IMG/VR virus record: IMGVR_UViG_3300027759_000095
Location: 1-61,872 of that record
Strand: one strand, 5' to 3'
Length of the DNA: 61,872 nt
Origin: a virus
Lineage: Duplodnaviria > Caudoviricetes
Shown here piece after piece: positions 17,538 to 59,046 of this stretch. Under the pieces are notes generated by a model. The model searched no databases. It had not been told where the DNA came from and was given only the letters and a program-made list of their open reading frames with translations. The position numbers and the translations under genes are program-made. Every line of letters begins with the position of its first letter. Within the stretch, counting starts at the first letter, position 1.

Positions 17538-20500
17538 ATGCCCATTTATGAGTACAAGGGTCAGCAGTACGACATTACCACTGAGGACCCGGCTGAGGCT
17601 AAAGCTAAGATCTTAGGCTTTATTGAAAAGCAGCCTCCAGCTCCAGCTCCTAGGGTGCCAGACTTTGCGGGCAACGCAGCCATGTCTCCGCAAGAGCAGG
17701 CCTATGCTTCATCCCAAAGAGCTGGGATTGCCAGTTTGCGCACGCCTAGCGCTGTACCTGAGATGACTCAGTACACCCCATCATTACCAGAGATGTTGAT
17801 GGGCTTGCTCCCAGGGGATAAGGCCAAAGCAGCCAATGAGTACGCCGCAAGAAAAGCTGCGGAAGAGCGCGGTGTATCGACAGAAGAAATCTACAAAGGT
17901 GCTGGCGGTGCACGGCCAATGTTTAACCCGGAAGGTCGTGCGCCTATATTGGCTGGAACACAAGCCGGTACGGTTATAGCCAAAGAGCTTCCAAACATAC
18001 CTCAGCAAACAGCAGTTGCAGCTTTGCAAGCGGTTAGGGCTGGTGATATTGGCGCGCCTGGACAAGAAACATTCCTTGATAAAGCCATAAATTACATGAC
18101 TCCTGAGACTCCAAAAGGAGAGCAGGATAAAAACTACGATGCGTTCCAAGGTCTTTCCAAGTCAATGGGATTTAGCCTTACCACAATGGTTAGTTCTATA
18201 GTTGGAGCGGCTGCTGGAACATCTGTAGCTGGTTTTCCAGGTGGTGTTGCCGGAGGAATGGGCGCATCAGGAACTGTGGCTTACCGATCCAGTAAAGATG
18301 ACTTTTTAAGCAGAGTTAGAGACAAGCTTAATCAAGAATCTATTAAGTTGTACAACAAACCAATTAGCAAAGCTGATTGGGAGAACGCTAAAAAAGAATT
18401 TGATTCTGCGGCTTCTTCTTATGGCGCATGGGAAGCTGTCCCAGAGGCGCTAAGCAATGCCATCATGCTCAAGGCTTTTACCGGTCCCGCACGAGCAGCG
18501 GCTGGAGCTGGCCGTCTTGAGCAGTTTATGGTTAAAAACAATATAGCGGAAAAAATTGCATCGTATGCCACAGAAAATATAACAGAAACAACGACTGGGC
18601 TTGGCCAACGTGCAGCCGAACTAAAGGCTGGATTATCTACAGAAGAGTTAAGTATTGCTGATGCGTTTAGGCAGCAATTTATACAAACGCTTTTAATGTC
18701 TGGAGGAATGCAGGTTGGCGAAAAAGCCACCCATGCAGCCTCCCGGTTCTATCAAGACAAAATTGAACCACGCATTAACCCCGGCAGCGCCTTAGGCAAA
18801 GCTATCATGGCTGACCTTAACGCTGTTGAGTTTAGCCAAAGTGCAATTAACAAAGAGGCTATTGCGCGGCTCGCTCCGCAAAAATACCAGCAGGAAAAAC
18901 TAGCTACTGAAAAGGTTGCTAAGACTGCCCGAGGTATTGCAATGCCTCCTCCGCCAGAGGAAAAACTGGTAGAGCCACCAGCTGCCAAGCCACCAGTTGA
19001 ACCGGCTGGTATTGCTGGCCTTACTGCTGCGCCTTCTGAGTCTATGGATACAGAGGCAATGCTGCGCGAGGCATTGGGACAAGCTCCCGCCGGAGTCGCA
19101 ACTTTACCACCTGTTAAAGTTGAAGAGCCTAAAGCAGCCAAAGGGCTTGCTGATCGCATTGGTTTGCCTCAAGGTCCCGCTAGAGAAAACGCCGCAAACG
19201 AAGAAATTCCTCTTGATGACAAAATTCTTTTGAGGGATATGGTTGTCAAAAGCGTGGAAAATGGCTTGGCATCAGGTAAAACACGCCAGCAAATTATCGA
19301 CCAATTAGAAGCACTTACTAAAGGCGGAATTAGTAATAGTGATATTGCCCGCATACATGACTATTTAACTGAAAGCGGAGTAAAAGAAACTCCTGCTAAG
19401 GTTGAGCCAACCGTGGCAGAAACCGGCCCATTTGTTCGTAAGCAAATGGAAGCACAAGCTCCCACTACCCCAACCCCAGTCTCTATTGAAGGAGCCCTAA
19501 GTGGCATTGAAACCCCTAAAGCCAAGCAAGCAGAAGCGCAAGAACAACAAGCGCCCGCAGCCAATGTAATTTTTAGTGAAGGCCAGCAAAAACTAAAAGA
19601 TGCGCTTGATTCAAATGGTCGAATATTTATTGATAGCACTGATGAAGCTGGTAAAAAAACATATTACGCAAAAGGGGTTGGATCTACAGATTCAAAATTT
19701 GCAGTTGAGTTGCAGTTAACCCAGGAAGAAAAAAGAGCAGCAAGGATAGCCGAAGGTGACATGGAGCTTGCTGATACACAAGAAGAGCGCAATGCTGCTA
19801 GACAAGCCCTTGAAAATGCATTGCGTCCTGCTGCTAATCGAGCCACAAAGCAACAAGAACAACAAGCGCCCGCAACACCTGCTAAAAAATTAACAACAGA
19901 GCAAGATTATTACGACACATTTCAGAAGACGGCATCACCTGAAGCAAAGGCTGCTTTTGATAATGTAGAAAAAACACTTGGAAGTGTTGTAGCGGCAGTT
20001 AATAATCTTGGCTATGAAGTTACTGATCCAAAAATAAAATTAAATTCAGAAGCAAGTAAATTAAAAGATCAATACAACGCTTTAACAGCCGATAGATCAA
20101 ATCTTTTGTCTGGGCACTTTGCCTTACAAGAAAAATTTAATAATGCTGATCAAAACAAATTTAATGCCGCCATCAAGCGTGCAAACACTTCTGCCAATAA
20201 CGCTCAGCAAGTAATACGCAAAGCTGTTCCACGTCCTCAAGAAGTTATTGAGGCAGAACAAAGAGTTACCGAAGGCGAGAAAGCTATAAGCAAAATTAAA
20301 GGCAAGCCTGGGCGCAGCCTATGGACGGCTTTGACGGGAAAGCTTGGCTCCAGTGATATAGCTGAATTGTTTGGCAAAAGCCCTCAGATTTACCAAAAGA
20401 AGCTCCAAGCTAAAAAAGATACAAGTGGCAAGTCAATTGCAGACATGGTTTCTGACGGCGATTTGGATGACTTTCTGCCGTTCCAAATGCGCTCTAACGT

Positions 20501-23500
20501 CCCCGGCTTTGACGGCCAAGATGCGGAAGAGTACATCAAGGACCAGGTCCGTGGCCAGAACTACATTCCTTACGATGCGCAGGTAGAGATTGAACAAATC
20601 TTTGGCTCCGTTGAAGAGGCTGAGAAATTAATTAACGACTACCTAACTACTGAGGAGCAGAACCTTGAACTTCAAGAAGCGGCCGACGAGCAAAGACAGG
20701 GTGAAATCAATGCTCGCAGCGTTGAGCCCGAAAGCGAGATTCCATCTACTGAACCAGATGAAGGAGAAGCGCTTACTAAACCAACCCCAGAAGGATTAAG
20801 GGCTAAAGAAAAGTATCGTATTGAGGCGGAGGCAAAAGAGGCCGCCGAGGCCAAGGCCAATAAAGAAGCTGGAGATAGGGCCAAAGCTGACAAAGAGGTT
20901 GGTGAATTTACTTTAACTGGCAGTGATCGTGCTGCTGATGTTGCGGCTGCGCGTGGGCAAAAAGATCTCCTTGCCGAAGAAGAAGCGCCAGTCAATGAAG
21001 ACGGCGTTAAGGTTGTTCCTTTCGAGGCGGACTCCGAAACCGTTGGAAAGCTTTTAAGCGAAACGCGGGAGGAGGAAGAGCCTTCCGATATTCGCCGTAA
21101 TGCATTAATGCACTCAACGGAAAAGCCAGCTAAGCCAAAGCCAACTGAAATGTTAACGCCTGAAGAAGCCAAGGCCCAAATAGATGAGTGGAAGGCGGAG
21201 GCGGCACGCCAGGGCAAGGCTAATAAAAATTACAACAAGACTATCCTTAGTTTGTTCGATGCATCTGGTGAGTGGGCTAGACCTTGGCAAGAGGCCGGCT
21301 ACGATGTCCATACCTTTGACATTCAAACAGGCGAAGACATTAATGACTTTAGTGCAGAGTACTTACTCGAAAATGGGTATGGCGATTTAAATATTTGGGG
21401 CATTCTTGCTGCTCCTCCTTGTACAGACTTTGCCTCTTCAGGCGCTCAGTTCTGGGCTAAAAAAGACGCCAAAGGTCAGACAGAGATCAGCAATGAGTTG
21501 GTAATGCAAGTGATCCGTACAGTTAATTTTCTTCAACCAAAAATTTGGGCCATGGAGAATCCTGTTGGACGTATTGCAAAGCTGAACAATCTGCCGCCAG
21601 CACACCTGACGTTTGATCCTAACTACTACGGCGATCCGTACACAAAGAAAACCCTGCTCTGGGGGAACTTTGAAAACAATCTGCCTATGGCTCCTGTCGA
21701 GCCAACTGAAGGCTCAAAGATTGTTAAGCTGAGTGGCAAAGACAAGTACGCCCGCTCGCTTACGCCTGAAGGGTTTGCCTACGCATTCTTCATGGCTAAC
21801 AACGCTGAGAGCATGACTCCGGCTGAGCGCCTTACTCGTACATATTACGGCGTTGATCCCAAGGCTTTTGAGGGCGCTACAGAGGCTGATGAAAAGGCAA
21901 TTGATGACTCTGAGTTCCAGGATAAATACTATGACGGTAACTTAGAAGAGGCTGCCACGATTGCCCGTTACATCATTAATGGCGAGCAGGAAATACAAGA
22001 AGAGCCTCCATCAGAAGATTACCAAAAGGCAGTGGATGAGTCAAACAAAGCGATTAAAGCTTTCAATAAAATACAAGAGGCTTACCGCGCTCAAGAGATT
22101 GGCGATGATGAATTCTTAGCGGGCCGCAAAGTTTACGACGCCGCCATGAAAAAGTTTGATACGGCTTATGCGGCAGAACAAGAGCCGGCAGAGCCCGCAA
22201 AAACTCCGACTACTGCGCTTGCCACCATTGATAACAAGGCAATCCTAAAAGACGCTTTAAGGATTCATGAGCTAAACATAGATTTGCAACAGATCAGCGG
22301 CGATGATGGCAAAAAAATAGAAGATTACTCCGCTAAAGAAATTTATAGCGAAGCTAAATATATTCTAGGGTTGTTCCTTGAGAGTGGAACAATGGATAAC
22401 GATGCTTATATAGGAGAGCATGGTCCAGAAGAACAGAAAGCCGCAAAAGACTCTGTTAAAAAACTGCAGGCGTTGATTAAAAAGTATGCTGATATTGAGG
22501 TGCTGGGCCCGGCAGAGAAGCCAGCTGCTCCTCAACTGACCAATGAGCCGTACACGATTGAAGGTGAGTTCACAGAAATAGGTGAAGAGAAACAGCACGC
22601 TCTGCTTTCTAACCAGACCTCCAAGCTAAGCGAAGACCAGACGAAGAGCCTTGAGGCTCAGTACGGCGCTAAGCGTGGCTCTGCTGAGTTCCTGGACAGC
22701 GTCCGCAAAGATGTCATTGCTTTTATTACAGAAGGCGCCAAGGCTGTTAACGGCAAGATACGCGCAATCATCCGCCAGCTGGCCAACGGCGTGCTGTCTG
22801 TGGCCATAGTCTTTAACCCTCAGTTTGTCAGCAAGCCATACACAATTGCAGTCCCCCAGTACGACATCAAGACCAGTGAGGTTATCAAGGACCTACCAAA
22901 AGAAGCGCAGTCGATGTCCGATGCCGCCAAGCGTGCGTATGGCGTTATCTACCCAGCCCTGGAAGCTCAGCTCAAGGCCAACGACAAGCTGTTCATCGTT
23001 GCGGACAAACGCAGCGGTAACACCTACCTTTTTAATCCTGATGGATCTCTCTTACTCCAAAGCAAGACTTTGTTTGGCAAGGCCATCGGCGACTACATGC
23101 ATGGCGATAATGAGATAGAGGCCAATAGAATTACTCCGGCTGGCGTGTTTGATCTCGGCCTGCGTGATGCCAAGCGCAGCGCTGGTGAGGCCTACACCGC
23201 TGGCGAATATGACTTTGGTAAGGTGTTTGTGCTGGACAAATCCAACATAGGAAAGAACGGCCCGTACTCCAACACCATCATGCACTCTGTGTGGACGAAT
23301 GAGACTGATGCCAAGCAACGCCTGGCTGCGCTAGAGAAGCCCGGAGCAGAAGACTCGCGCTATTCCTTTGGCTGTATTAACGTCAACAAAGAAACCTTCA
23401 AGTACCTAATCACCAACCACCTTAACCAGATGGATGGCGCCAAGATATTTATCGTTCCCGAAAACGGCGCAAATGTCATGGACTTTATCAATGGTAAGGC

Positions 23501-26500
23501 GATGAACAGCGATGACATCATCCGCCAGAAGGTTGAGCCAGTTACCAAGACAACCGTAACAGAGAAGCAAGTACCCGCTCCAAAGCCAAGTATTGAGCGC
23601 AAGCAAACTGGCCGTGAAACAGAAGTAGCCAAGCTTGAGGTCAAGACTGAGGAAGAGGCTCCAGGCAAAGAACCTAAAGAACCAAAGGAGCAGACTTTTT
23701 ATGATATTGGGGTTGACCAGACGGAAACTCCTGCATTCAAACGTTGGTTTGGCAACAGCAAGATTGTCGATGCTGATGGCAACCCTTTGGTTATGTACAG
23801 GGGAGAAAAAAAAGGCAGTACTTATTTTAAATCAGGAAAACCTGCGCGTCTTAACCAACCAATTTTTGTTACGCCAAGTTTTATTCTGGCAAATAAATTT
23901 GCAGGCGTGAAAAAAACAAACCAAAGTATATTTGGCGGAGGATTTATAACCCCTGTATATGTTAAAGCTCAAAATACATTTGACTATCAAAACAAAAAAC
24001 ACCTCAAGTTAATTTCAAATTATTTGGAATCCATTGATGAATCTGTTTTGGATGATTTGTTGGCAGAAACAAACAATGAAAAAATAAAAGACTATATTCA
24101 CGAGCTTGAGTATTCAGGCCATGACAACTGGAGTGCAATAGAAATGCCGGTAGTGTGGGATTGGCTACAAGCTAACTTTGACTCAGTTTATGTTGGAGAA
24201 GAAGGTGTTAAAAATTTAGCTGTTTTTTCACCAAACCAAATTAAATCCGCCATAGGAAACATTGGCACGTTTGATGAGAGCAACCCTGATATACGTTACA
24301 GCATTGAGGGTAAAAAATTACCTCCGGGGCGTTCTCCTGAGTTGGCGGCTGCGGCAAAAGAAGTTAAAGCTGGAAGAATGTCGGCGGCTGAGTTTGATAA
24401 ATTGGTAAATAAATACAGGCCAATTTATTTATATCAAGTCCCATTAAAGCCAGCTACGCCAGAGCAAATGGTCGAGGCTTTAAGTTCGGACAAAAAAGAA
24501 AAAATTAACCCAACCATTTCAGACGGTACTCGCGTTGGCTTGCGTCTGGATATTCCAGCTTTCAACCGCAAGGGCGTATACGTTGTTTCAATCCACGAGA
24601 AGGGCAACAAAAGTGGCCCCGGCAAAGTGATTGGCTATGACAGTGTTGCTGTAATCAACAATGTAACTTTTGGATTGGGTAGCCAAACTAAAGCTTTGGA
24701 TATTGCTACAGGAGCCTCAAAAGATGCTCTTCAAACAATGGAAGGAGAGTACGTTAAAACCGATCCATCTACGGCTTATGTGAATGCTGTGGAGGCAATG
24801 AATGATCCAGCTTGGACTCAGATTGCTGTAGACCCAACTCGCCATGCTTATTTCTATGACCGAAATACAACTCAACCAGTCATAGCTGCGGAACAAGTTA
24901 TACAAATTGGCAATATGGTTTTGGCTAAAAATGTTACTTATGGAGATAAAGCTGATTATCTTTATAACATAGGGAAAGAAGGCTACGCAGAGCAGGAGCA
25001 AAAGAAACGCTCTGATTCTTTAAAGCGTACTCTTAAGACTCTTAACCGAATGCGCAAAGATGGCCGCATAACAGACGAGCAGTTTGTTGAACGAGCTGAT
25101 GCCGCTATTGCTGCCGATGAAGATCAACGTCTTGCAGAGGAGCCGGGAGAACGTGTACGCGGCGCTGACTTTATCCGCCAAAAGCTATTAGAAGCCAAGC
25201 GCAAGAAGTTTATTTCTGAAGACGCAGCCGATATGGCTGAATGGTTCATTAATCAAAACCCCGCGCTGGTTGATGATTTGGGAATCAGCATTATTGGCAA
25301 AGGCGCTCGCGGTGCGGTTGGGCAATATAACCCATTTAGCCGCATCTTGACCCTTATCAAGGGCCTCGCCTCCGATACGACAACTGTGCATGAGATCTTG
25401 CACCACCTTGAGCGCATGATGCCGACCAAAGTGCAGCAAGCTATTCGTAGGGCTTGGTCATCTCAACTTGCCAAAGCCACCAAGAAGGCCAAGACCCCAG
25501 CCGAGAAGCTGTACTTTGCAGCTCTGAGGGATGCCCACTACGGCAGCAACCGGCATTCGATGTTAATCATTCCAGAAGGTGCTGGTGAGGTTTACTCTAA
25601 AGTGCGAAAGGCGCTTGAGTACGCATCAGAAGATGGCAGTAGCTCTAATTTCGCAGGGACCATGCTCGGGCTGGGGCTGGTTCCAACGAATCTTTACGAG
25701 TACTTCAACCCGTCTGAGTTCTGGGCCGTCAATGGCTCCGACATTGTGCGGGCTCGCTTTGAGGCCGTAAGAGGCGGTGTACTGGCTCGCCTGAAGAACT
25801 GGCTTAAAGAGTTTGCCCAAAAGATTAAGTCGTTGTTTGGCTTGAAGTCTGATGCCTCCATCATTCGTGCGTTAGATAGCCTTGCAAAGGCTGATGGTCA
25901 GTTCGTTACGCAAGAGATGCTGGGAGAGGGAGACTACCTATCAATTGAGCGCCGTAACTTCCAGGGCAATGAGGCTCCACAGCCGGCATTTGAGGCACCA
26001 ATACCATCTGCAATGGATACCTTTGCTTATAACTTCTTGGACAAGCAGCATGACATGAGGAGTGTCATTAATGAGATCCAAAAAGTTAGAGGTGAATTGG
26101 TTAAAGAGCAGATTGACCCTTACCTCAAGAATGAAAGCTTTATTAGCCGTAAAGCTGCGCGTGAAGAAAATTTTGTTGATAACTCAATAATGCCAATTGT
26201 TCAGGAGATGTACAAGAACAAGGTAAGCATTCTTGAAGTAGAAGAGTACATGCATAACCGCCATGCGGAAGAGCGCAATATCCAGGTGGCAAAAATTAAC
26301 CCATCTTTACCTGATGGTGGATCTGGCATTACTACAGCAAATGCACTTAAGTATTTGTCTGAACTTCCAGAAAACAAACTAAAGATCTACAACAAAATTG
26401 CCAAGATGTTTGATGGCGTTGTTGATGAGACTCAACAGATTCTGGTTGAGTCTGGGGCTGAAACTCAGAAGACTATTAATGATTGGAACAACACATACGA

Positions 26501-28751
26501 GTATTACGCGCCGTTGCAGCGCGAGGATTTAGACTTTGTTAATCATGGTGTTGGTAACGGTGGTGGCCTTGGGTCCAGGGGTTCATTCTCCAAGCGCGCT
26601 TTTGGATCAACCAAAAATGTTGCAAACATTTTGCAGAACATTGTGTTGCAGCATAAGCGTGCCATTGACAGGGCTGAGCGTATCCGTGTTGGCAAGTCCT
26701 TAATGGGCCTGGTGCTAACAAATCCAAATCCAAACTTCTGGATACCTGTTAACCCCAATGCAATAAAAAGCATTAAGAAGTTTAAGGAAGAGGTGCAGTC
26801 TCTTGGTATCTCTGCGGACCAAGCAGAGAACATGCTGCAAGAGCCAAAGGCTCCATCTATTGATAAAGAGACTGGGCTTGTTAAGTATGCCGTCAACCCG
26901 GCTATGCGTAGCATGGATAACGTTTTCCCTGTTCGGATTAATGGCCAAGACTGGTTCATCATTTTTAACCCAAGTGATGAGCGCGCAATGCGTATGGTTA
27001 AGTCATTGAGGAACTTGGATGTTGAAAAGCTAGGCATCTTCATGGGCACGGCTGGCATGATTACTCGCTGGATCTCAGCTATTAACACCCAGTACAACCC
27101 AATTTTCGGAGCATTTAACTTTGGCCGTGACGTTGGCACCGGGTTGCTCCAGTTGTCAACAACAGAGCTTGCTGGCCAGCAAAGTAAGGTAATGAAGAGC
27201 GTCATGCCTGCATTGGCTGCAATCTTTAAAGAGCAGCGCGGCTGGAGCGGGTCAAAAAATGTTCTTGATAAAGACGAATTAACACCACAAGAATGGCGTG
27301 ATCTTTACCAGCGTTATAGATTAGCCGGAGGAAAGATTGGCATCAGCGCAAACTTTACTCAACAAAAAACCAGACTTGAAAAGCTGGAAAAGGGCTGGGG
27401 AATTAAAGGTTTGCTTAGCGTTAGAGCAACCACTGATGAAATTAGCCTGATTGACAAAAAACTTGCAGAAATGGATCGCGGCAAAATAATGGCCGGCGCC
27501 CATTACTTGTTTGACTACCTGTCTGACTACAACGAAGCAATGGAAAACGCTGTACGTCTAGCTACATTTAAAGTTGCCGTCCTTGACAACAACATGAGTG
27601 ATGACAAAGGCGTAAGCTTAGCCAAAAATGTCACCGTCAACTTTGATAAAAAGGGCGCAGTGGTTCCCAAACTTCAGGCTTGGTACTCCTTTATCAACCC
27701 CAGCATCCAAGGCGCAGTGGTTGTTAAAAATGTTTTGACTGGGCCAAAGGGCAAGATAATTATTGCTGGAGGCATTGGGCTTGGAGTTATGCAAGCTCTA
27801 TTACTGTTTGCGGCTGGCTTTGATGACGATGACCCGCCAGAGTTTGTTAAGTCAAAGGCGTTTGTTGTTCCAACCGGGGATGGTAAGTACTTTATTGTGT
27901 ACCCTCCCTATCCTCCAGGATTTAGCATGTTGCCAGGAATTGGCCGCATGTTGACAGAGGCGTTCTTGATCAAGTCAAAGGCAATGAAGAGCAACGAATC
28001 TGCCTCTGATAAAATTTTTGACATTCTTCCAATGATGCTTGACTCTGTAAATCCAATGGGTATTGGCGCTACTTGGCAACAGCTGGTGCCAACTCCATTG
28101 GACCCGATTGCAAACGTTATTGTGAATAAAAATGCGTTTGGCCGTCCAATTGCAAAAACGGATCGCCCGGGCGAGGAGACTCCAGGGTATGAAAGATCAA
28201 GAGATAGCGCAAGCTCTATCAGTAAAGGCATTGCGTACTTCCTTAACTGGTCCTCTTCCCCTGCTGGAACAACGTATACCAAGGGAAAAATTAGCCCAAC
28301 CGCAGACCAGTTGGATTATTTTGCCGAGCAATATTTTGGCGGCGTGTTCCGCGAAATGGTTAAGGCTGGGGAGTCTATTGGGGCCAAAGTTAAAGGTGAA
28401 GAGCAGCCAATGTATCGCGTCCCATTGGCTGGCAAGTTCTTTGGTGAGACAAAAACTCCAGCCGCCACCTCTTCTAGGTTCTATAACAACATAGAAATTA
28501 TGAACACACATGAGCATGAAATTAAAAAACGTCAAGAAAATCGCGAACCTACATCTGAGTATTTAAAAGACAATCCGGAGGCTAAGCTTTGGAAGGAGGC
28601 TAATGCCGCCCAAAAAACCATTGGCAACATTAACAAAGAAAAGAAGGCTGCAACTGCACGGGGTGCGTCTAAAGAAACAATTGATGCTATCAATGAAAGA
28701 AAAGTTAGGGCTATGAAAGCGTTTAACGACAAAGTCAGAGCAGCCCAATAA
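17538..28751 (+). CDS. Giant polyvalent ejection protein (C5 DNA MTase-like, L,D-transpeptidase-like, ADP-ribosyltransferase-like, HExxH peptidase, LPD38-like domains)
   Basis: 3737-aa ORF; ILSLFD.SG.W/AAPPCT/MENP; IMHSVW...SFGCINV; FKRWFG.SKIVD..G.PLVMYRG...F.PNQIKSA.GN.GTFD; VHEILHH..SEFWA. Confidence 0.8.
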   Translation: MPIYEYKGQQYDITTEDPAEAKAKILGFIEKQPPAPAPRVPDFAGNAAMSPQEQAYASSQRAGIASLRTPSAVPEMTQYTPSLPEMLMGLLPGDKAKAANEYAARKAAEERGVSTEEIYKGAGGARPMFNPEGRAPILAGTQAGTVIAKELPNIPQQTAVAALQAVRAGDIGAPGQETFLDKAINYMTPETPKGEQDKNYDAFQGLSKSMGFSLTTMVSSIVGAAAGTSVAGFPGGVAGGMGASGTVAYRSSKDDFLSRVRDKLNQESIKLYNKPISKADWENAKKEFDSAASSYGAWEAVPEALSNAIMLKAFTGPARAAAGAGRLEQFMVKNNIAEKIASYATENITETTTGLGQRAAELKAGLSTEELSIADAFRQQFIQTLLMSGGMQVGEKATHAASRFYQDKIEPRINPGSALGKAIMADLNAVEFSQSAINKEAIARLAPQKYQQEKLATEKVAKTARGIAMPPPPEEKLVEPPAAKPPVEPAGIAGLTAAPSESMDTEAMLREALGQAPAGVATLPPVKVEEPKAAKGLADRIGLPQGPARENAANEEIPLDDKILLRDMVVKSVENGLASGKTRQQIIDQLEALTKGGISNSDIARIHDYLTESGVKETPAKVEPTVAETGPFVRKQMEAQAPTTPTPVSIEGALSGIETPKAKQAEAQEQQAPAANVIFSEGQQKLKDALDSNGRIFIDSTDEAGKKTYYAKGVGSTDSKFAVELQLTQEEKRAARIAEGDMELADTQEERNAARQALENALRPAANRATKQQEQQAPATPAKKLTTEQDYYDTFQKTASPEAKAAFDNVEKTLGSVVAAVNNLGYEVTDPKIKLNSEASKLKDQYNALTADRSNLLSGHFALQEKFNNADQNKFNAAIKRANTSANNAQQVIRKAVPRPQEVIEAEQRVTEGEKAISKIKGKPGRSLWTALTGKLGSSDIAELFGKSPQIYQKKLQAKKDTSGKSIADMVSDGDLDDFLPFQMRSNVPGFDGQDAEEYIKDQVRGQNYIPYDAQVEIEQIFGSVEEAEKLINDYLTTEEQNLELQEAADEQRQGEINARSVEPESEIPSTEPDEGEALTKPTPEGLRAKEKYRIEAEAKEAAEAKANKEAGDRAKADKEVGEFTLTGSDRAADVAAARGQKDLLAEEEAPVNEDGVKVVPFEADSETVGKLLSETREEEEPSDIRRNALMHSTEKPAKPKPTEMLTPEEAKAQIDEWKAEAARQGKANKNYNKTILSLFDASGEWARPWQEAGYDVHTFDIQTGEDINDFSAEYLLENGYGDLNIWGILAAPPCTDFASSGAQFWAKKDAKGQTEISNELVMQVIRTVNFLQPKIWAMENPVGRIAKLNNLPPAHLTFDPNYYGDPYTKKTLLWGNFENNLPMAPVEPTEGSKIVKLSGKDKYARSLTPEGFAYAFFMANNAESMTPAERLTRTYYGVDPKAFEGATEADEKAIDDSEFQDKYYDGNLEEAATIARYIINGEQEIQEEPPSEDYQKAVDESNKAIKAFNKIQEAYRAQEIGDDEFLAGRKVYDAAMKKFDTAYAAEQEPAEPAKTPTTALATIDNKAILKDALRIHELNIDLQQISGDDGKKIEDYSAKEIYSEAKYILGLFLESGTMDNDAYIGEHGPEEQKAAKDSVKKLQALIKKYADIEVLGPAEKPAAPQLTNEPYTIEGEFTEIGEEKQHALLSNQTSKLSEDQTKSLEAQYGAKRGSAEFLDSVRKDVIAFITEGAKAVNGKIRAIIRQLANGVLSVAIVFNPQFVSKPYTIAVPQYDIKTSEVIKDLPKEAQSMSDAAKRAYGVIYPALEAQLKANDKLFIVADKRSGNTYLFNPDGSLLLQSKTLFGKAIGDYMHGDNEIEANRITPAGVFDLGLRDAKRSAGEAYTAGEYDFGKVFVLDKSNIGKNGPYSNTIMHSVWTNETDAKQRLAALEKPGAEDSRYSFGCINVNKETFKYLITNHLNQMDGAKIFIVPENGANVMDFINGKAMNSDDIIRQKVEPVTKTTVTEKQVPAPKPSIERKQTGRETEVAKLEVKTEEEAPGKEPKEPKEQTFYDIGVDQTETPAFKRWFGNSKIVDADGNPLVMYRGEKKGSTYFKSGKPARLNQPIFVTPSFILANKFAGVKKTNQSIFGGGFITPVYVKAQNTFDYQNKKHLKLISNYLESIDESVLDDLLAETNNEKIKDYIHELEYSGHDNWSAIEMPVVWDWLQANFDSVYVGEEGVKNLAVFSPNQIKSAIGNIGTFDESNPDIRYSIEGKKLPPGRSPELAAAAKEVKAGRMSAAEFDKLVNKYRPIYLYQVPLKPATPEQMVEALSSDKKEKINPTISDGTRVGLRLDIPAFNRKGVYVVSIHEKGNKSGPGKVIGYDSVAVINNVTFGLGSQTKALDIATGASKDALQTMEGEYVKTDPSTAYVNAVEAMNDPAWTQIAVDPTRHAYFYDRNTTQPVIAAEQVIQIGNMVLAKNVTYGDKADYLYNIGKEGYAEQEQKKRSDSLKRTLKTLNRMRKDGRITDEQFVERADAAIAADEDQRLAEEPGERVRGADFIRQKLLEAKRKKFISEDAADMAEWFINQNPALVDDLGISIIGKGARGAVGQYNPFSRILTLIKGLASDTTTVHEILHHLERMMPTKVQQAIRRAWSSQLAKATKKAKTPAEKLYFAALRDAHYGSNRHSMLIIPEGAGEVYSKVRKALEYASEDGSSSNFAGTMLGLGLVPTNLYEYFNPSEFWAVNGSDIVRARFEAVRGGVLARLKNWLKEFAQKIKSLFGLKSDASIIRALDSLAKADGQFVTQEMLGEGDYLSIERRNFQGNEAPQPAFEAPIPSAMDTFAYNFLDKQHDMRSVINEIQKVRGELVKEQIDPYLKNESFISRKAAREENFVDNSIMPIVQEMYKNKVSILEVEEYMHNRHAEERNIQVAKINPSLPDGGSGITTANALKYLSELPENKLKIYNKIAKMFDGVVDETQQILVESGAETQKTINDWNNTYEYYAPLQREDLDFVNHGVGNGGGLGSRGSFSKRAFGSTKNVANILQNIVLQHKRAIDRAERIRVGKSLMGLVLTNPNPNFWIPVNPNAIKSIKKFKEEVQSLGISADQAENMLQEPKAPSIDKETGLVKYAVNPAMRSMDNVFPVRINGQDWFIIFNPSDERAMRMVKSLRNLDVEKLGIFMGTAGMITRWISAINTQYNPIFGAFNFGRDVGTGLLQLSTTELAGQQSKVMKSVMPALAAIFKEQRGWSGSKNVLDKDELTPQEWRDLYQRYRLAGGKIGISANFTQQKTRLEKLEKGWGIKGLLSVRATTDEISLIDKKLAEMDRGKIMAGAHYLFDYLSDYNEAMENAVRLATFKVAVLDNNMSDDKGVSLAKNVTVNFDKKGAVVPKLQAWYSFINPSIQGAVVVKNVLTGPKGKIIIAGGIGLGVMQALLLFAAGFDDDDPPEFVKSKAFVVPTGDGKYFIVYPPYPPGFSMLPGIGRMLTEAFLIKSKAMKSNESASDKIFDILPMMLDSVNPMGIGATWQQLVPTPLDPIANVIVNKNAFGRPIAKTDRPGEETPGYERSRDSASSISKGIAYFLNWSSSPAGTTYTKGKISPTADQLDYFAEQYFGGVFREMVKAGESIGAKVKGEEQPMYRVPLAGKFFGETKTPAATSSRFYNNIEIMNTHEHEIKKRQENREPTSEYLKDNPEAKLWKEANAAQKTIGNINKEKKAATARGASKETIDAINERKVRAMKAFNDKVRAAQ
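19100..19121. repeat. Dispersed palindrome site 1 (AACTTTACCACCTGTTAAAGTT)
   Basis: Inside giant ORF; 19099-19122 is the exact reverse complement of 47850-47873. Confidence 0.85.
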
Positions 28752-29024: not shown

Positions 29025-29819
29025 TTAATCGCCACAAAAGCAAGAAATTGCTTCTTCATTAGGGTCAAACATATCGTATTGTTTATTGGTGTAAGTCAAC
29101 ATATCTGCATAACTTGGGTGCGCTTGATTAAAACTTGCACCTATTTTTTTTTCCATGTTTACCCACCATATTGCGCGTTCTGGTTTGTCTTGAATTAAAC
29201 CTAATAAGTGATTTGTTTTTTTTAAAAAACACAAATCGCAATTACTTAACAATGAGTTTCCATTAACAGTTATGGTGTCTAAGTCAAACGATTGATCACT
29301 CCAAAAAGACAAAACGTCTTTCACCGTTACTCGCGCCGTGGCCAAAGGAGTCTCTTTGATGTCTATATTGCCTTTCATCTTGGCAACCCTCTGAGGCTCG
29401 TCAGCGCGTATGCCAACAAATGTAACAATGTCCTCATATCCTAATGACTTAAGATGTTTTTTCATTGGGTTTATCTTAAGCTCAGAAGTGCAAAACCTAG
29501 CAAAGGTGTTGGGTAAATAATTCTTTTTTTCTATCAAGGCTTGGAAGGGTTCACCATTCCTACTGGCCGTTGCGTAATCAACAACAGCATACCCATTTGC
29601 CCTGTACTCCAGCCATGCAATAGGCACACCCCACTGCTCAGAGCAATCCTGCACGAACCTTAAAGTTACCTCGTCCTCTTTGCCCGTGTTAGCAAAGCAA
29701 ACGATAGCCTCTGTTGGTAGTCCGCCATTGCTTTGCAATACGCGCCAAAGCATATAGGCAGACGTTCTGCCGCCACTAAAAGAAATACAAGTTGGCTCGG
29801 TTATTAAAAATGGGTCCAT
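29025..29819 (-). CDS. Phosphoadenosine phosphosulfate reductase-family protein
   Basis: PP-loop ISFSGGRTS, FANTGKE, RFCT.ELK, GIRADE, NCDLCFLK, C-terminal CFC. Confidence 0.85.
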   Translation of the reverse strand: MDPFLITEPTCISFSGGRTSAYMLWRVLQSNGGLPTEAIVCFANTGKEDEVTLRFVQDCSEQWGVPIAWLEYRANGYAVVDYATASRNGEPFQALIEKKNYLPNTFARFCTSELKINPMKKHLKSLGYEDIVTFVGIRADEPQRVAKMKGNIDIKETPLATARVTVKDVLSFWSDQSFDLDTITVNGNSLLSNCDLCFLKKTNHLLGLIQDKPERAIWWVNMEKKIGASFNQAHPSYADMLTYTNKQYDMFDPNEEAISCFCGD

Positions 29820-29834
29820 TTAAATTTCCCCGGT

Positions 29835-30029
29835 TTACGATTCCTGTACATGTTTTCGGCGCTTCTTGATGGCCGCAATACCCTCTTCCGGCTTACGTGC
29901 TTCCATGAAGTAGTCAGCCATTTCAAAGGCGGTAGGGACAATTAACTCCCCCTCCCTATTTCTAATGATCAAGCCGGTCATGGCAAACATGGCCGCCAAG
30001 TCGCGTAGGTTTTCTTCATGCTCAGTCAT
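29835..30029 (-). CDS. Hypothetical protein
   Basis: LRDLAAMFAM...AFEMADYFMEAR conserved small phage motif; coupled. Confidence 0.65.
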   Translation of the reverse strand: MTEHEENLRDLAAMFAMTGLIIRNREGELIVPTAFEMADYFMEARKPEEGIAAIKKRRKHVQES

Positions 30030-30244
30030 TAGTGGATCTCCATGTTCTGGCGGTTCTCTCTTGCTATACGCAGTGTTTGTATAACAGCGTTAACGGCCTG
30101 ATGTTCATTGTCCATCTTGAGTTGGACCATCATCTCGCACATCACAGAGCAAAGAGCCATAACGGCGTTCATTGGCTCCTTACATTCTGTGTTGGCTATG
30201 GCCGCATAGATGGCGTTCTGCATGTTTTCGAATTCATCCATCAC
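30029..30244 (-). CDS. Hypothetical protein
   Basis: Coupled ORF in the leftward operon. Confidence 0.6.
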   Translation of the reverse strand: MMDEFENMQNAIYAAIANTECKEPMNAVMALCSVMCEMMVQLKMDNEHQAVNAVIQTLRIARENRQNMEIH

Positions 30245-30513
30245 ATCTCCAAGGCTTCAATTTTTTGGGACAAGAGGTCGCTCAAGTATTTGCCTTTGAC
30301 GGCGATATGCTCGATCTCTTTGACATCATCAACCTGCCGCACGCAATCCTTCAAGGCTTTGTTGTAGCCAGCTTTGTAGGCATCATTGCCATCAAGGATC
30401 ATGCAGATGGCATCACGCACCATCGCTGATGCTTTGCGCTGCGCTGCCAAGACCTTGATCTTGTCGTGATATTCCACTGGTAGGTATACGCTATAGGGAA
30501 TTAGTTTCTTCAT
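30241..30513 (-). CDS. Putative ribbon-helix-helix DNA-binding protein
   Basis: PYSVYLP.EYHDKIK.LA...S.MVRDAI fits the RHH beta-alpha-alpha pattern. Confidence 0.5.
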   Translation of the reverse strand: MKKLIPYSVYLPVEYHDKIKVLAAQRKASAMVRDAICMILDGNDAYKAGYNKALKDCVRQVDDVKEIEHIAVKGKYLSDLLSQKIEALEM

Positions 30514-30956
30514 TGTGTTAAGCCTTTATGATTATGCAGAGCGCTGGCCGCTGTATCAAGTGTTTTAAAATATCCAATGTGTATTTTTTTTATTTGAACA
30601 GCCCAACAATTAGTTTGTTTGTACCAACGAATATGTTTAATACCAGATTTATTGTTTCTATACATGCCCATATTTTGTGCATTCTCCTGCAATGAAACGC
30701 TGCGCAAATTTTCAATCTTATTATTGGCTCTATTTCTGTCAATATGATCAATCGTGTCTGGCTGAGCCCCATAGTGCATGATGTAAATCAAACGATGGGC
30801 TTTGTACTTTTTACCATTGATCGTAATCAAAATATAACCATCCTTATCAGGAGATCCGGCGCAAGTACCTGCGGGTAGCTTTTTATTCGGCTTATCCTTC
30901 CAGTACAAACATCCGTCGCGATATGTAAACAGGTTGTCCAATATTTCCTTGTTCAT
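30510..30956 (-). CDS. HNH homing endonuclease (HNH-AP2 type)
   Basis: AHRLIY...IDHIDRNRANNKIENLR..N; C-terminal SG.K.I.W...W...IGYF. Confidence 0.88.
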   Translation of the reverse strand: MNKEILDNLFTYRDGCLYWKDKPNKKLPAGTCAGSPDKDGYILITINGKKYKAHRLIYIMHYGAQPDTIDHIDRNRANNKIENLRSVSLQENAQNMGMYRNNKSGIKHIRWYKQTNCWAVQIKKIHIGYFKTLDTAASALHNHKGLTQ

Positions 30957-31375
30957 GTTTTCCTCCATGCCTCAAAGCTTGCTTTAAGACGGTTAAATAA
31001 ATCGCGGGCCTCTTCGTCTGTCTTTAGTTCCTTGCGGGACTCTATGCCCAGATAGAAGATTAGCCAAGATGCGCAGGCCTTTTCGTTCTTCTCCATCAGC
31101 CACTCCTTCTTGTGCAGCCACTCCCAGAAATCAGGATCTCGGCAGAGTATTCCAGCCATCTTAACGGCATGGTCGCCTGGAAACTCATGTTCACGGACCA
31201 TGGGCTGCTCATCGTCGCCCAGCCGCACCATCACAACAACATAACGCGAGCCAACAAAGTCACGCATTAAGTCGTCGGGAAGGTCATCAGGATGGACGGC
31301 CATCGTTAAAACGTAGCCGTCCTTTGACTGCTTGAGTCCAGTCTTTATGCCTTCAAACTGGATTGGTTCGCTCAA
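30953..31375 (-). CDS. Hypothetical conserved phage protein
   Basis: AGILCRDPDFWEWL...LGIESRKEL motif; coupled. Confidence 0.7.
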   Translation of the reverse strand: MSEPIQFEGIKTGLKQSKDGYVLTMAVHPDDLPDDLMRDFVGSRYVVVMVRLGDDEQPMVREHEFPGDHAVKMAGILCRDPDFWEWLHKKEWLMEKNEKACASWLIFYLGIESRKELKTDEEARDLFNRLKASFEAWRKT

Positions 31376-45328: not shown

Positions 45329-45502
45329 TCAATCCTTCGGGTTTTGTTGTTCAAGTCGGATGGCGCGCTCAATATTTCGCTGGTTGTATCCATCGGCGAG
45401 CTTGTCTATCAGCATTGCGGCGTCTATAGCCTCGGGCGTGGGCTCTGCCGGTGGTGCGTATAGGCGCAAAATGGCCTGGAATAATGGGTGTAATTCGTTC
45501 AT
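45329..45502 (-). CDS. Hypothetical early protein, 57 aa (not in ORF track)
   Basis: MNELHPLFQAILRLYAP...; coupled. Confidence 0.55.
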   Translation of the reverse strand: MNELHPLFQAILRLYAPPAEPTPEAIDAAMLIDKLADGYNQRNIERAIRLEQQNPKD

Positions 45503-45857: not shown

Positions 45858-46130
45858 TCATATCGTGCAGCATCCGCAACAGGGGGCATCCTCGCACCGG
45901 CCGGCTTTGTTGCGGTAGTACTGACGGCCGCTTCCAAAGTCGATAACGTGGCTGACATAGTCCGGCCGGATGTAGTCGCCGGTTTCGTTGTGGCGTCCCT
46001 CGAAGCCCTCGAAGCTTAAAAGGCTAGCGGTTTTCGTGGCCGTGTCGTATACGATCATCTGGCCTCGGGCGATACGCTGGCCGGTCCGGCTGCACGTACC
46101 TGCGAATTTCGCGGGCATTGTTTTAAGCAT
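45858..46130 (-). CDS. Cys-rich hypothetical protein
   Basis: AKF.G.CS.TG..I..G; C-terminal GRCEDAPCCGCC. Confidence 0.7.
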   Translation of the reverse strand: MLKTMPAKFAGTCSRTGQRIARGQMIVYDTATKTASLLSFEGFEGRHNETGDYIRPDYVSHVIDFGSGRQYYRNKAGRCEDAPCCGCCTI

Positions 46131-46524
46131 GGGTTAGGCCTTTCAGAGTTTGCAATTGGTGGCCGATACCCTGGCCGCGTAGGGGGAAATAAACATTCTT
46201 AAAGCCCTCCAGGGCCTGGGCGTAGTGCTTACCGGCTAGAACGACAATGGTGCGGCCATAGTGCGGAAGTAACTTGTAGGCGGCGTGCTGGGCCCATATC
46301 CGGCGCTCTAATCGGCTCATGGCGGACAATGCGCGGTTATAGGGCGCTAGGGTTTGATCCGGCTCTATAACGTGATGCTGGGCCGATAAGATTAGAACGT
46401 CAGCATTGACGCGCGCGGCGGCTGCCATCGCTAGGCGGAAAGCTTGCCCGGTGTATAACTGGGCGGCCGGGGCTGCATGATCGAGCTTTGCGGCGCTACA
46501 GGCGACAAGGTAAAGGGGTTTCAT
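46123..46524 (-). CDS. DUF6884/YaaA-like protein
   Basis: VACSAAK...A.QLYTG..F...ILSA.H....PYN...LAG..Y...GIG.QL. Confidence 0.6.
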   Translation of the reverse strand: MKPLYLVACSAAKLDHAAPAAQLYTGQAFRLAMAAAARVNADVLILSAQHHVIEPDQTLAPYNRALSAMSRLERRIWAQHAAYKLLPHYGRTIVVLAGKHYAQALEGFKNVYFPLRGQGIGHQLQTLKGLTHA

Positions 46525-47569: not shown

Positions 47570-47619
47570 CCCCCTTGTGTTTTGGTACAAAAAGGGTGGG
47601 GGGTATATATTTTTTAAGG

Positions 47620-47640
47620 AACTATAACAATGTTAAAGTT
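47620..47640. repeat. Dispersed palindrome site 5 (AACTATAACAATGTTAAAGTT)
   Basis: Overlaps the start codon of 47630. Confidence 0.7.
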
Positions 47641-47884
47641 TGATGGGTTTGACTATGCTCTTATGGGGCAATCTGATATGTGGGTTCCTAATGGGGGCGG
47701 GGCTGCTTTGGTTACTAAGGCTATCTATGATGGCGAGAGGATGGTAAAGACTCTAATGAAGCAGATGACCGAAGAAGAGGCGCGGGAGTTTATTTCGTTT
47801 GCTATAGAGGGCAAGTACCTAGGCATAGAGACGCCCGTCATCTATTGGCCAACTTTAACAGGTGGTAAAGTTGTTATATCCTAA
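47630..47884 (+). CDS. Hypothetical conserved phage protein
   Basis: DGFD.A..G...YD...M..EEA.EF..F...G.YLG..TP motif. Confidence 0.75.
   Translation: MLKFDGFDYALMGQSDMWVPNGGGAALVTKAIYDGERMVKTLMKQMTEEEAREFISFAIEGKYLGIETPVIYWPTLTGGKVVIS
47851..47872. repeat. Dispersed palindrome site 6 (AACTTTAACAGGTGGTAAAGTT)
   Basis: Reverse complement of site 1. Confidence 0.85.
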
Positions 47885-47918: not shown

Positions 47919-48140
47919 ATGACGGAGAAGCAGCGGACGGTTTTTCTTGTGATAGATGAGTACTGGAAGAACTTTGGGTATGGGCCGTCTATAGATGACA
48001 TCATGTACCAGACGGGGGATAAGGGGCGCGGGAATGTTCATAGGGTGGTTAAGAAGTTGTGTGATCTTGGGATATGTAAGCGGGTGAGTAAGAGCGCCCG
48101 TAGTGTTCGGCCTAGCTATTTGTCAATGCGCAACATATGA
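47919..48140 (+). CDS. LexA N-terminal-like winged-helix DNA-binding protein (no peptidase domain)
   Basis: MTEKQ..VF..I..Y....GYGPSIDDI...G...VHR....L...G.......RS. Confidence 0.75.
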   Translation: MTEKQRTVFLVIDEYWKNFGYGPSIDDIMYQTGDKGRGNVHRVVKKLCDLGICKRVSKSARSVRPSYLSMRNI

Positions 48141-57227: not shown

Positions 57228-57612
57228 CAGCGCCAAACAACACAAATTCATGGAAGCGGTGGCTCACTCGCCATCGTTTGCCAAGAAGGTAGGAGTTCCA
57301 CAGTCCGTGGGCAAAGATTTTTCAACTGCGGACAAGGGCCGCAAATTCTCTAAAGGTGGTGATACTATGGCTTCCAAAATGAACGCTGGTTTTATGGCAA
57401 TGATGGCTAAAAAGAAGGGCGCACAAGAAGGCTCTAAAGCTGATATGGCCTCTGACAAAAAGCAAATGATGGGTATGAAAAAAGGCGGCGGCGTTAAGAA
57501 GATGGCCGGCGGTGGTCTAGCTGCTGGTCATAAAAGCGCCGATGGTATTGCTTCTAAAGGCAAGACCAAAGGTAAAATGATTAAAATGAACATGGGCGGA
57601 AAAGCCTGCTAA
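57217..57612 (+). CDS. K/G/M-rich basic protein
   Basis: MPSSSAKQHKFM.AVAH.P.FAKKVGVPQSVG.DF; likely start is ATG 57217. Confidence 0.7.
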   Translation: MPSSSAKQHKFMEAVAHSPSFAKKVGVPQSVGKDFSTADKGRKFSKGGDTMASKMNAGFMAMMAKKKGAQEGSKADMASDKKQMMGMKKGGGVKKMAGGGLAAGHKSADGIASKGKTKGKMIKMNMGGKAC

Positions 57613-57865: not shown

Positions 57866-58114
57866 ATGATGGCCAGCCGAGGGATGGGTGATATATCCCC
57901 ATCCAAAATGCCTAAGGGTGTGCGAAAAGCCCGCCGAGATAACACTGACTTTACAGAATATGCTAAAGGTGGTGAAGTCTGGGATAAAGCACGCCCCAAA
58001 AAGTTAGGCCCATCTAAGCCACTAAGCTCAAGTAAAAAAGCCAAGGCTAAAGCTTCCGCCAAAGCTGCTGGTCGCCCATATCCAAACTTAATTGACAATA
58101 TGAAGGCCGCGTAA
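57866..58114 (+). CDS. Small basic protein
   Basis: SRGMGDI, YAKGG, AGRPYPNLIDNM. Confidence 0.7.
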   Translation: MMASRGMGDISPSKMPKGVRKARRDNTDFTEYAKGGEVWDKARPKKLGPSKPLSSSKKAKAKASAKAAGRPYPNLIDNMKAA

Positions 58115-59046
58115 TGTCTACTACCGGTACCACAGCCTTTAATCTAGAGTTTACGGAACTTGCTGAAGAGGCTTGGGAGCGGGCTGGGCGCGAGATGCGT
58201 TCTGGCTATGATTTGCGTACAGCGCGTAGATCACTTAACTTGATGACCATTGAGTGGGCTAATCGCGGCCTAAACATGTGGACAATTGAGACTGGCACCA
58301 TTACCCTAACGCAAGGCCTTAACACCTACGCTTTGCCCACTGATACGATTGATCTACTGGATCATGTGATTCGGACGCAGCCAAACGTAGCGTCAACCCA
58401 GGCCGACTTGAGCATCACCAGGATTAGCGTATCAACGTATGCAACTATCCCGAACAAGCTGACTCAAGGCCGGCCAATTCAAGTATGGATTCAGCGTTTG
58501 TCTGGTGAAGTTGGCCCTACCTCTGCCACTTTAAATGGCGCTATTACAGCTACGACTGATTCCATTACCCTAAGTACCGTTGTTGGCCTGGCTGGATCTG
58601 GTTACATCCGCGTGGATAGTGAAGATATCTATTACACCTACATATCTGGAAATACCCTGGGCGGTGTTTTCCGTGGCCAAAACAACACAACCGCAGCTGC
58701 TCACACAACTTTAACAGCTGTTAAAGTTCCCCAGCTACCTGCTGTTACAGTTTGGCCAACACCTGATGGCTCACAGACTTACCAATTTGTCTACTACAGA
58801 CTACGCCGCGTTCAAGATGCTGGCAAAGGTGTAGAAACAGCAGATATGAATTTTAGGTTTTTGCCCGCTGTTACAGCTGGATTGGCTTACTATATTGCCA
58901 TGAAAGTACCCGAGTTAATGGGCCGGCTAGAAATGCTTAAAGCTGTTTATGAAGAACAGTACAAGCTTGCTGCTGGTGAAGACCATGAAAAAGCCACATT
59001 GCGTTTAGTGCCACGTATGTCATATATTGGTGGAGGTGGCATGTAA
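58114..59046 (+). CDS. Head-tail adaptor-like protein
   Basis: EEAWERAG...GYDLRTARRSLNLM..EWANRG.N.W; inserted beta domain; RFLPA..AGLAYY. Confidence 0.6.
   Translation: MSTTGTTAFNLEFTELAEEAWERAGREMRSGYDLRTARRSLNLMTIEWANRGLNMWTIETGTITLTQGLNTYALPTDTIDLLDHVIRTQPNVASTQADLSITRISVSTYATIPNKLTQGRPIQVWIQRLSGEVGPTSATLNGAITATTDSITLSTVVGLAGSGYIRVDSEDIYYTYISGNTLGGVFRGQNNTTAAAHTTLTAVKVPQLPAVTVWPTPDGSQTYQFVYYRLRRVQDAGKGVETADMNFRFLPAVTAGLAYYIAMKVPELMGRLEMLKAVYEEQYKLAAGEDHEKATLRLVPRMSYIGGGGM
58707..58728. repeat. Dispersed palindrome site 7, perfect (AACTTTAACAGCTGTTAAAGTT)
   Basis: Perfect 22-bp palindrome inside the CDS. Confidence 0.9.

Follow-up and report, generated by a model that had tools for sequence, protein, structure and literature searches.

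Dispersed palindromes in an uncultured freshwater phage genome and an orphan ParB-like protein as their probable reader

Which protein reads a family of near-identical palindromes that is scattered over a whole phage genome, in part inside unrelated genes? This question is raised by IMG/VR record IMGVR_UViG_3300027759_000095 (Duplodnaviria; Caudoviricetes), a complete virus record of 61,872 bp from an uncultured freshwater phage, which we analysed at full length and refer to as the window. An original prediction had proposed that seven copies of the consensus AACTTTAMCA-N1-2-TGKTAAAGTT are parS-like sites for a ParB encoded without ParA, the product of the gene at 39116-39919, and had named as alternative binder a LexA-like winged helix-turn-helix (wHTH) protein encoded at 47919. 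We found that the palindromes form a real and conserved site family, a variation on the ParB-site theme, whose most likely reader is, with some reservation, the orphan ParB-like protein.

All seven copies were present in the window. Four of these are exact consensus matches with a 2-nt spacer (19100, 34550, 47851 and 58707), a kind of match which did not occur in 100 dinucleotide shuffles. At 41700 and 47620 the spacer is 1 nt long and each copy contains a single mismatch (2 matches vs 0.01 expected), and the copy at 44002 has 3 mismatches (5 matches at that tolerance vs 0.01 expected). For the 10-nt half-site we counted 11 occurrences, where 0.45 would be expected and no shuffle exceeded 3. 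That the 58707 copy is a perfect 10+10 palindrome was confirmed, as was the exact reverse complementarity of 47850-47873 and 19099-19122. In a position-weight scan the seven sites scored 26-35 bits and the runner-up 20.3 bits; the latter, ATCTTTACCAGCGTTATAGAT (27301-27321, in the giant gene described below), is a possible weak eighth copy. With seven or eight sites, the gaps around the genome range from 0.2 to 22 kb. Three of the seven copies are intergenic and four lie inside open reading frames (ORFs), namely the giant gene at 17538-28751, the primase gene at 41415-42200, ORF 47630-47884 and an adaptor-family gene at 58114-59046. This placement had been judged unlikely by chance and a codon-preserving shuffle had been proposed as a check; with 300 such shuffles averaging 0.58 intragenic hits of at least 20 bits and never exceeding 3, against 5 observed, the judgement held. 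The intragenic copies are seen in one shared reading frame because the other two frames hold stop codons.

The copy AACTTTACCACCTGTTAAAGTT (19100-19121; exact match) lies at offset 1562 of the giant gene, and orthologous sites are found in the giant gene of relatives G006, G008, G010, G012 and G014. The intergenic copy AACTTTACCAGCTGTTAAAGTT (34550-34571; exact match) stands at the head of the plus-strand early block, directly 3' of a terminator-like hairpin (34523-34544) and a T-run. The copy ATCTTTAACAATGTTAAAGTT (41700-41720; 1-nt spacer) lies at offset 285 of the primase gene, a place also used in G011 and G013, and the residues it encodes shift with the motif variant of the lineage. The degenerate copy AACTATAACTCCTGTTAATGTT (44002-44023; 3 mismatches) is intergenic in a minus-strand block and kept in relatives; on the minus strand it contains AGGAG, with an ATG directly after it. 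The copy AACTATAACAATGTTAAAGTT (47620-47640; 1-nt spacer) has the ATG of ORF 47630 at its centre, and upstream of it are a conserved hairpin and T-run 3' of the putative small terminase gene. The copy AACTTTAACAGGTGGTAAAGTT (47851-47872; exact match) covers the 3' end of ORF 47630, and at this locus relatives carry 1-3 tandem copies with a period of 27 bp. The perfect palindrome AACTTTAACAGCTGTTAAAGTT (58707-58728) lies at offset 593 of the adaptor-family gene and is kept in L007, L011, L015 and G006; G008 and G013 use offset 446. The alternation between these two offsets (window 58114-59046; G008 6951-7880; G013 35399-36328) looks like site turnover within the gene.

The window has no close cultured relative: near-identical DNA was not found in the phage collection, in which tblastn gave no match to the wHTH protein and four distant matches only to the ParB-like protein. 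From IMG/VR we obtained 29 ParB loci and 175 wHTH loci, of which 80 were kept, and ten larger relatives were fetched. The ParB-like gene is present in 10/10 larger relatives and the wHTH loci come from the same contigs, so that the two genes cannot be separated there by presence and absence. The palindrome family occurs in 10 of the 11 clade genomes, with 2-6 copies under strict criteria against 0-0.2 in shuffles; G009 has zero under these criteria. The core TAACA-N1-2-TGTTA is constant across the clade and the outer arms vary by lineage (AACTT in the window, AACAT/AACTT in G006, ACTG in G007, G011 and G013, TACTC in G015, and TAAT or ATAT in G012 and G014). Sites are held at orthologous places, including the giant gene, offset 285 of the primase gene, offset 593 or 446 of the adaptor-family gene, the head of the early block, and the spacer between the small terminase and wHTH genes, where as many as four copies occur, some of them repeating every 27 bp. 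Intragenic copies alter amino acids to match the lineage variant, as in the primase (I-F-N-N-V-K-V in the window, I-C-N-S-V-T-V in L034), which is therefore selection at the DNA level; the sites exist, are conserved and are selected as DNA. That all sites within a genome change in concert suggests that the phage itself encodes the reader. It should also be noted that in G006 (5378, 16856, 16883, 20784 and 49571) and in L049-L060 one arm reads AACATT and the other AACTTT at every site. A dependence of this asymmetry on transcription direction was considered and dropped, as, measured against the gene strand, intergenic sites show one polarity and intragenic sites the reverse.

The gene at 39116-39919 (plus strand) encodes an orphan ParB-like protein of 267 aa with an N-terminal ParB/Srx fold, a helix-turn-helix (HTH), a disordered linker and two long C-terminal helices. 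The ParB/Srx domain with DGFHR that had been read from the translation was recovered by PHROG 1033 (E 5e-16) and by Foldseek (E 3e-9, probability 1.00); the Pfam ParB_N match scored 18.5 bits, under the cut-off of 26.3, and phmmer gave E 5e-5 against Myxococcus xanthus ParB. The top Foldseek matches were M. xanthus and Bacillus subtilis ParB, Noc, Caulobacter ParB and KorB (E 3e-9 to 6e-6). These matches span the N-domain and the HTH, which superposes on the DNA-binding domains of ParB, Noc and KorB. The HTH had likewise been anticipated, and the AlphaFold2 model (predicted local distance difference test 79) places its helices at 122-129 and 133-143. It has the motif V-S-x1-x2-T-V-G-R-V-R-K-A-L-G-L, in which x1 (N133) and x2 (M134) are the first residues of the modelled helix 133-143. 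For the dimerising coiled coil that had been claimed, the model has helices at 177-205 and 211-266, and coiled-coil-type matches were weak only. Box II reads G57-F-H-R60-W-H-A, so that GxxR is kept and the Glu and two Arg of GERRxRA are replaced; DGFHR is invariant across the window's clade and the sister clade described below. Box II is defined as GxxR in PMC12704722, according to which binders of cytidine, adenosine and guanosine triphosphate all occur in the ParB fold. The claimed lack of a ParA held up in the window, where AAA_31 gave no match at E ≤ 1 and CbiA just a 13-bit P-loop match inside the helicase. The ParA-binding motif LG(R/K)GL, as PMC12704722 defines it, is absent from the N-terminus of the ParB-like protein, MTEKILLSKIRLDGG. 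The window therefore holds neither the ParA partner nor the ParA-binding motif of a ParABS system.

The strongest evidence on the reader comes from a sister clade. MW202545.1 is a complete circular phage genome of 57 kb which shares with the window the ParB-like protein (33% identical), helicase, primase, capsid, portal and terminase, and the ParB-helicase-primase operon is common to the sister clade and the window. LexA_DNA_bind was found at E ≤ 1 in 0/5 sister-clade genomes (MW202545.1 and four others, two of these complete), with G006 as a control at 25.9 bits. MW202545.1 has eight perfect copies of TACTAGTC-N-GACTAGTA and its relatives have 3-5 copies of their own variant, for which whole genomes are uniform; shuffles contain 0-0.1 palindromes of this 8-N1-8 form. 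Two of the MW202545.1 sites, 27 bp apart, lie in the linker-coding part of parB and a tandem pair directly follows the large terminase gene; another is at the stop codon of the last early gene, before a terminator and a strong TTGCAA-17-TAGAAT promoter, and others are in structural genes, one of them in a paralogous adaptor-family gene. One site of the sister clade is located 35-110 bp upstream of a strong promoter. Between the -35 and -10 boxes of the MW202545.1 promoter (near 57300-57457) there is a second palindrome, TCTAAC-N5-GTTAGA, which is probably the operator of another regulator and has a counterpart downstream of the distal site in L174 and L175. Linker palindromes (offset ~480-520) were found in 63/69 sister-clade parB genes, with one to three copies inside the linker.

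When these palindromes were compared with the HTH encoded beside them, helix residue x2 was Pro with A and Ser or Thr with G three bases from the dyad in 59/59 unambiguous rows, and at x1, C six bases from the dyad was paired with Gln and G with Lys in 51/51 rows. When a tree was computed with the HTH and linker columns left out, x2 and its base changed 12 times each, and the independent pairs on supported branches were concordant in 8/8 cases (sign test: p = 0.0078; 12 pairs on all branches); x1 and its base give only 2-3 independent pairs. Distal sites, 0.9-9.7 kb from parB, agree with the code in 9/9 loci. As judged from the aligned sequences, ParB helix residues and palindrome bases change together in the sister clade.

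A related pattern is seen in the window's clade at half-site position 5, which is six bases from the dyad. Its bases are distributed over x1 as follows: with Asn T 61, C 6, A 4 and G 1; with Lys G 25, A 9, T 2 and C 2; with His G 4; with Ser T 22; with Gly T 6; and with Ala C 7, T 3, A 2 and G 2. A rule pairing Lys or His with G fits 20/23 rows, and the Lys-G pairing is the same in the sister clade. In G013, whose ParB helix (HT..I..R) diverges most, the core is changed to TGGAACA and the wHTH recognition helix is unchanged. G008 and G009 have identical wHTH proteins and differ at ParB x1 (Lys vs Ala), and only G008 has sites which bear the G.

The ParB alignment was also run against bacterial genomes, where it picked out 80 loci belonging to several phyla. 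In 48 of these an HTH could be recognised, and 14/48 have a perfect 8-N1-8 palindrome in the 330 nt that follow the HTH codons, where 1.5 would be expected from the palindrome density of the loci themselves. The helix-site pairs in these prophages include HP with GTTGTAAC and GTGGAATC, QS with TGCTAGTC and QP with TACTAATC. The site that accompanies an H-M helix (L295), CTTTAAAC-G-GTTTAAAG, is near the window's CTTTAACA, the window helix being N-M. One H-S helix has C at the position concerned and does not fit the Ser/G rule. The ParB-helicase neighbourhood was found in 33/65 bacterial-genome loci with enough downstream DNA and in 9/9 with a full-length ParB match. The ParB-like gene is the first of a ParB-helicase-primase operon which is conserved from the window phage to prophages of several phyla, and in most other clades a site lies inside the parB gene itself, two points that the original prediction did not raise. 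The operon with helicase and primase, together with the sites inside parB, brings a role in replication into play.

The alternative binder named in the original prediction is the 73-aa protein with a LexA-N-domain-like wHTH (47919-48140, plus strand), encoded between the putative small and large terminase genes, of which the palindromes would be operators, autoregulating its gene and acting at other sites. The gene is indeed just downstream of two sites, with the 47851 copy 47 nt upstream of its start and the densest site cluster there, and every relative examined (25 loci) has 1-4 tandem sites directly upstream of it. Its recognition helix is nearly invariant, as is the core TAACA-N-TGTTA, and its wing residues differ between sub-clades with different outer arms; the core AACA-NN-TGTT also has what we take to be a resemblance to the Gram-positive LexA box GAAC-N4-GTTC. 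The protein matches Pfam LexA_DNA_bind (26.4 bits, cut-off 23.7), but it falls short of a LexA repressor, with 28 bits for TIGR00498 against a cut-off of 111 and an end after 73 residues, without the C-terminal S24 domain by which LexA cleaves itself and dimerises. What weakens this account most is the sister clade, where genomes that have no LexA_DNA_bind match carry scattered palindromes built in the same way, two of them in tandem next to the large terminase gene. In addition, the sites of 12 loci whose wHTH is identical to that of the window differ at positions 4 and 5, and in G013 the core has changed under an unchanged wHTH helix. The site cluster upstream of the gene stands as described, and the wHTH protein as reader of the whole family is in our view unlikely. 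Its conservation is unusually strong for a small phage protein (84-100% identity over the 80 kept loci, with 53-78% for the adjoining small terminase).

Three further accounts of the repeats were considered. If they were RNA or single-stranded DNA hairpins, acting in processing, stability or translation control, or cruciforms, the varying spacer length, the presence of a start codon or Shine-Dalgarno sequence where the loops of 47620 and 44002 would form, and symmetric arm changes such as ACTGTAACA...TGTTACAGT would be accounted for. However, the predicted hairpins are weak (-2.2 to -7.5 kcal/mol; Z-scores +0.1 to -5.2, with 44002 at shuffle level), pair 8:15 is mismatched in 3/4 exact copies, and position 5 is never complementary in the 6/6 sites of G008. 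The sites of a genome also share sequence beyond structure, and this sequence tracks a protein residue. Of the explanations considered, hairpins are the least credible. Scarcely more credible is the idea that the host RNA polymerase, or an unknown phage factor, reads the repeats as parts of promoter or terminator units, even though the three intergenic sites follow GC-rich hairpins and T-runs and precede gene starts, TTAACA in the arm is similar to a -35 box, and 47620 and 47851 overlap with weak matches of the sigma-70 type. These promoter-like matches are not above shuffle frequency, the promoter and terminator scans did no better than shuffles, four sites occupy conserved positions well within genes, tandem repetition every 27 bp is unlike a promoter, and Pfam or PHROG scans of the window found no phage RNA polymerase or sigma factor. 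Boundaries of recombination or cassettes, or pac signals for the small terminase, are very unlikely too, if a shade less so. ORF 47630 stands between two copies, both of which persist in relatives where the ORF is absent or cut down to ~14 codons, the adaptor-gene site has two alternative positions, and in each of the two clades sites cluster next to the terminase genes. Against this, the majority of copies stand alone within conserved genes and have no cassette next to them, seven or eight scattered pac sites would presumably be harmful, and the covariation with ParB helix residues would be left unexplained.

It is therefore probable, in line with the original prediction, that the palindromes are specific sites of the phage's own ParA-less ParB-like protein (39116-39919), as suggested by the sister clade without the wHTH and by the covariation seen there, and we infer that the same pairing holds in the window phage. 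Several points weigh against this interpretation. The covariation that the original prediction had proposed as a check is present in the sister clade, but the window's own clade offers ~3 changes and one supported independent pair, which gives no statistical power, and L038, L043 and L044 do not fit the residue-base rule. In the sister clade the scored palindrome is ~100 nt from the HTH codons, so that co-inheritance by linkage could mimic covariation, and a test on distal sites only has three changes (p = 0.5). The window's clade has no site in or beside parB, the nearest being 1.8 kb off in the primase gene. The densest site cluster is instead the one just upstream of the wHTH gene, whose wing residues vary between sub-clades. 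ParB-type sites with both 1- and 2-nt spacers are not known to us. The Glu and two Arg of GERRxRA are missing from Box II, and the nucleotide bound is not reliably predictable from sequence or AlphaFold3 (PMC12704722).

If the ParB-like protein is the reader, it would bind as a dimer in which one HTH reads each palindrome arm, with N133 reading the base pair six positions from the dyad and M134 the pair three positions from it. A flexible linker between HTH and coiled coil would allow both 1- and 2-nt spacers to be tolerated, and the protein would mark the phage genome from seven sites. Like ParB, Noc, KorB and BisD, it would presumably self-associate or close into a clamp by means of its conserved nucleotide-binding fold with GxxR at the N-terminus. 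What such marking would be for can be answered only tentatively. Given this binder, the role that we would put forward first, at somewhat less than an even chance, is that it recruits or positions the co-encoded helicase-primase at origin-like loading sites, because the gene heads the helicase(-primase) operon and sites lie in its own linker region in most clades. Control of transcription at operon boundaries in the manner of KorB or BisD is a possible second, because three window sites follow terminator-like hairpins and abut gene starts and a sister-clade site is upstream of a strong promoter. Condensation, organisation or partition of the phage DNA, which is suggested by the spread of seven or eight sites round the genome, seems to us rather unlikely.

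Known systems resemble the candidate pair in different respects. Lambda O, at ori-lambda, is an initiator with its origin in its own gene. The sister clades are similar in that their replication operon opens with a gene that has 1-3 tandem palindromes in its linker-coding part, the helicase gene coming next; this layout, with sites in the own gene and the helicase next, was counted in 63/69 sister-clade genes and 14/48 prophage loci and is absent from 39116-39919. The window phage differs from lambda in having a ParB fold and no site in parB, and its seven or eight scattered sites would be unexpected for a single origin. Prophage N15 has SopB with several inverted repeats scattered in its genome, but it also has SopA and is a plasmid prophage; N15 SopB is, like the protein studied here, a phage-borne member of the ParB family. 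Best matched in structure are the chromosomal ParB-parS and Noc-NBS systems (7bnk, 6sdk, 7ng0 and 7bm8). The palindromic sites of ParB and Noc are often intragenic, parS can sit inside parB, and Noc has many dispersed sites. The window ParB differs from chromosomal ParB and Noc in that it has no GERRxRA and no LG(R/K)GL, an unrelated site sequence and a 1-2 nt spacer. Plasmid RK2 carries 12 dispersed 13-bp OB palindromes. KorB of this plasmid (PMC11790492, PMC13768133 and PMC13584720) also combines a ParB fold and HTH with short dispersed palindromes on a replicon of ~60 kb, some at promoters and others distant, acts beyond partition, and is matched by Foldseek at E 6e-6. Unlike the protein studied here, KorB has the ParA partner IncC and the small clamp-locking partners KorA and TrbA, is a proven CTPase and is plasmid-borne. 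The window system, for its part, has no ParA, has GFHR in Box II, belongs to a phage without integrase and has its gene tied to a helicase and primase.

Orphan ParB-fold proteins are common on phages and other mobile elements according to the survey in PMC12704722, which treats Noc as an orphan ParB and, in the main text available, names no DNA sites for orphan ParBs and does not contain the stem 'palindrom'. BisD of ICEclc (PMC12409273) and the ParBs of thymine-dioxygenase systems (PMC13229309) are also ParA-less ParB folds on mobile elements with a use other than segregation, and the latter, which are phage proteins that activate thymine dioxygenases, are without an obvious DNA-binding domain. 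For neither is a cognate family of dispersed sites described in the available text of these articles, unlike the family found here, and the window has no homologue of the 2-oxoglutarate (2OG) oxygenase of MW202545. This 2OG-Fe(II) oxygenase gene lies in the ParB-like operon of MW202545.1 (L163, 4986-5627). A link to a DNA-modification module was rejected, since the PAPS-reductase-like gene of the window and the 2OG oxygenase of MW202545 are not shared between the clades. For Serratia phage Eta, which has no integrase, a lone ParB acting with host factors has been proposed (PMC7556043); unlike here, no defined sites are described in the available text. A literature search of full texts, supplements excepted, found no paper that describes the pairing proposed here.

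One orphan ParB family thereby gains, from sequence alone, a putative cognate site, a residue-to-base code (Pro/A and Ser/G at x2; Gln/C and Lys/G at x1) and a partner operon with helicase and primase. Loading of the helicase by the ParB-like protein, if it occurs, would put the ParB nucleotide switch to a new use, and if the protein regulates transcription, control of the KorB or BisD type would be extended to lytic phages. A wider generalisation, which we regard as doubtful, is that the orphan ParB-fold family of phages and prophages with DGFHR[YWF]HA consists of nucleotide-switch factors for origin recognition or helicase loading that head a helicase-primase operon. Their sites would usually lie in their own linker DNA and be read by a re-programmable two-residue code, and in the window phage the sites would have left the gene and spread.

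Genes for structure and packaging, among them those for the large terminase, portal, capsid and SU10-type adaptor, occupy the stretch from 46796 to the window's end and continue from base 1 to 28751 (Pfam and PHROG scans). The plus-strand early block closes with the ParB-like gene, a superfamily 2 (SF2) helicase gene (39955-41418, plus strand) and a Toprim primase gene (41415-42200, plus strand), the third of the operon and the one that contains the 41700 site. The helicase, the conserved neighbour of the ParB-like protein, has ResIII and Helicase_C domains and four invariant Cys; its ORF is open from a TTG at 39889, and the ORFs of relatives begin at an ATG equivalent to 39955. The giant gene (17538-28751; 3,737 aa) had been labelled as that of an ejection protein; its product is a polyvalent protein with LPD38 (E 2e-25) and ART-PolyVal (E 1e-14) domains and a weak C5 DNA-methylase match. 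N4-type hairpin promoters with the giant protein as a virion RNA polymerase were dropped as an explanation, since it is a polyvalent protein in which no polymerase domain was found. Searches aimed at integrases and resolvases found neither in the window, and no DNA polymerase gene was found among the window proteins in the Pfam and PHROG scans made.

A minus-strand block at 29025-34097 contains PAPS-reductase-like, HNH, Erf, exonuclease and GIY-YIG genes. Within it are the free-standing endonuclease genes HNH (30510-30968) and GIY-YIG (33558-34097), and Erf and a PD-(D/E)XK exonuclease form a recombination pair at 31821-33571. The PAPS-reductase-like gene (29025-29819), DUF7227 (44637-45332) and DUF6884 (46123-46524) may be DNA-modification genes, and MW202545 has no counterpart of any of the three. 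A C-run/G-run hairpin followed by TATATATTTTTT is found 3' of the putative small terminase gene in nearly all relatives (window 47570-47619), and similar GC hairpins, putative terminators, lie ahead of the 34550 and 44002 sites (34523-34549 and 44040-44061). ORF 47630 (PHROG 13182; 47630-47884) behaves as a cassette between two palindrome copies and is reduced to ~14 codons in one relative (L047, 864-932), with both flanking copies kept. In an RNA-library contig of a relative with 90-95% identity, 47650 is joined to 47816 and the intervening stretch is gone.

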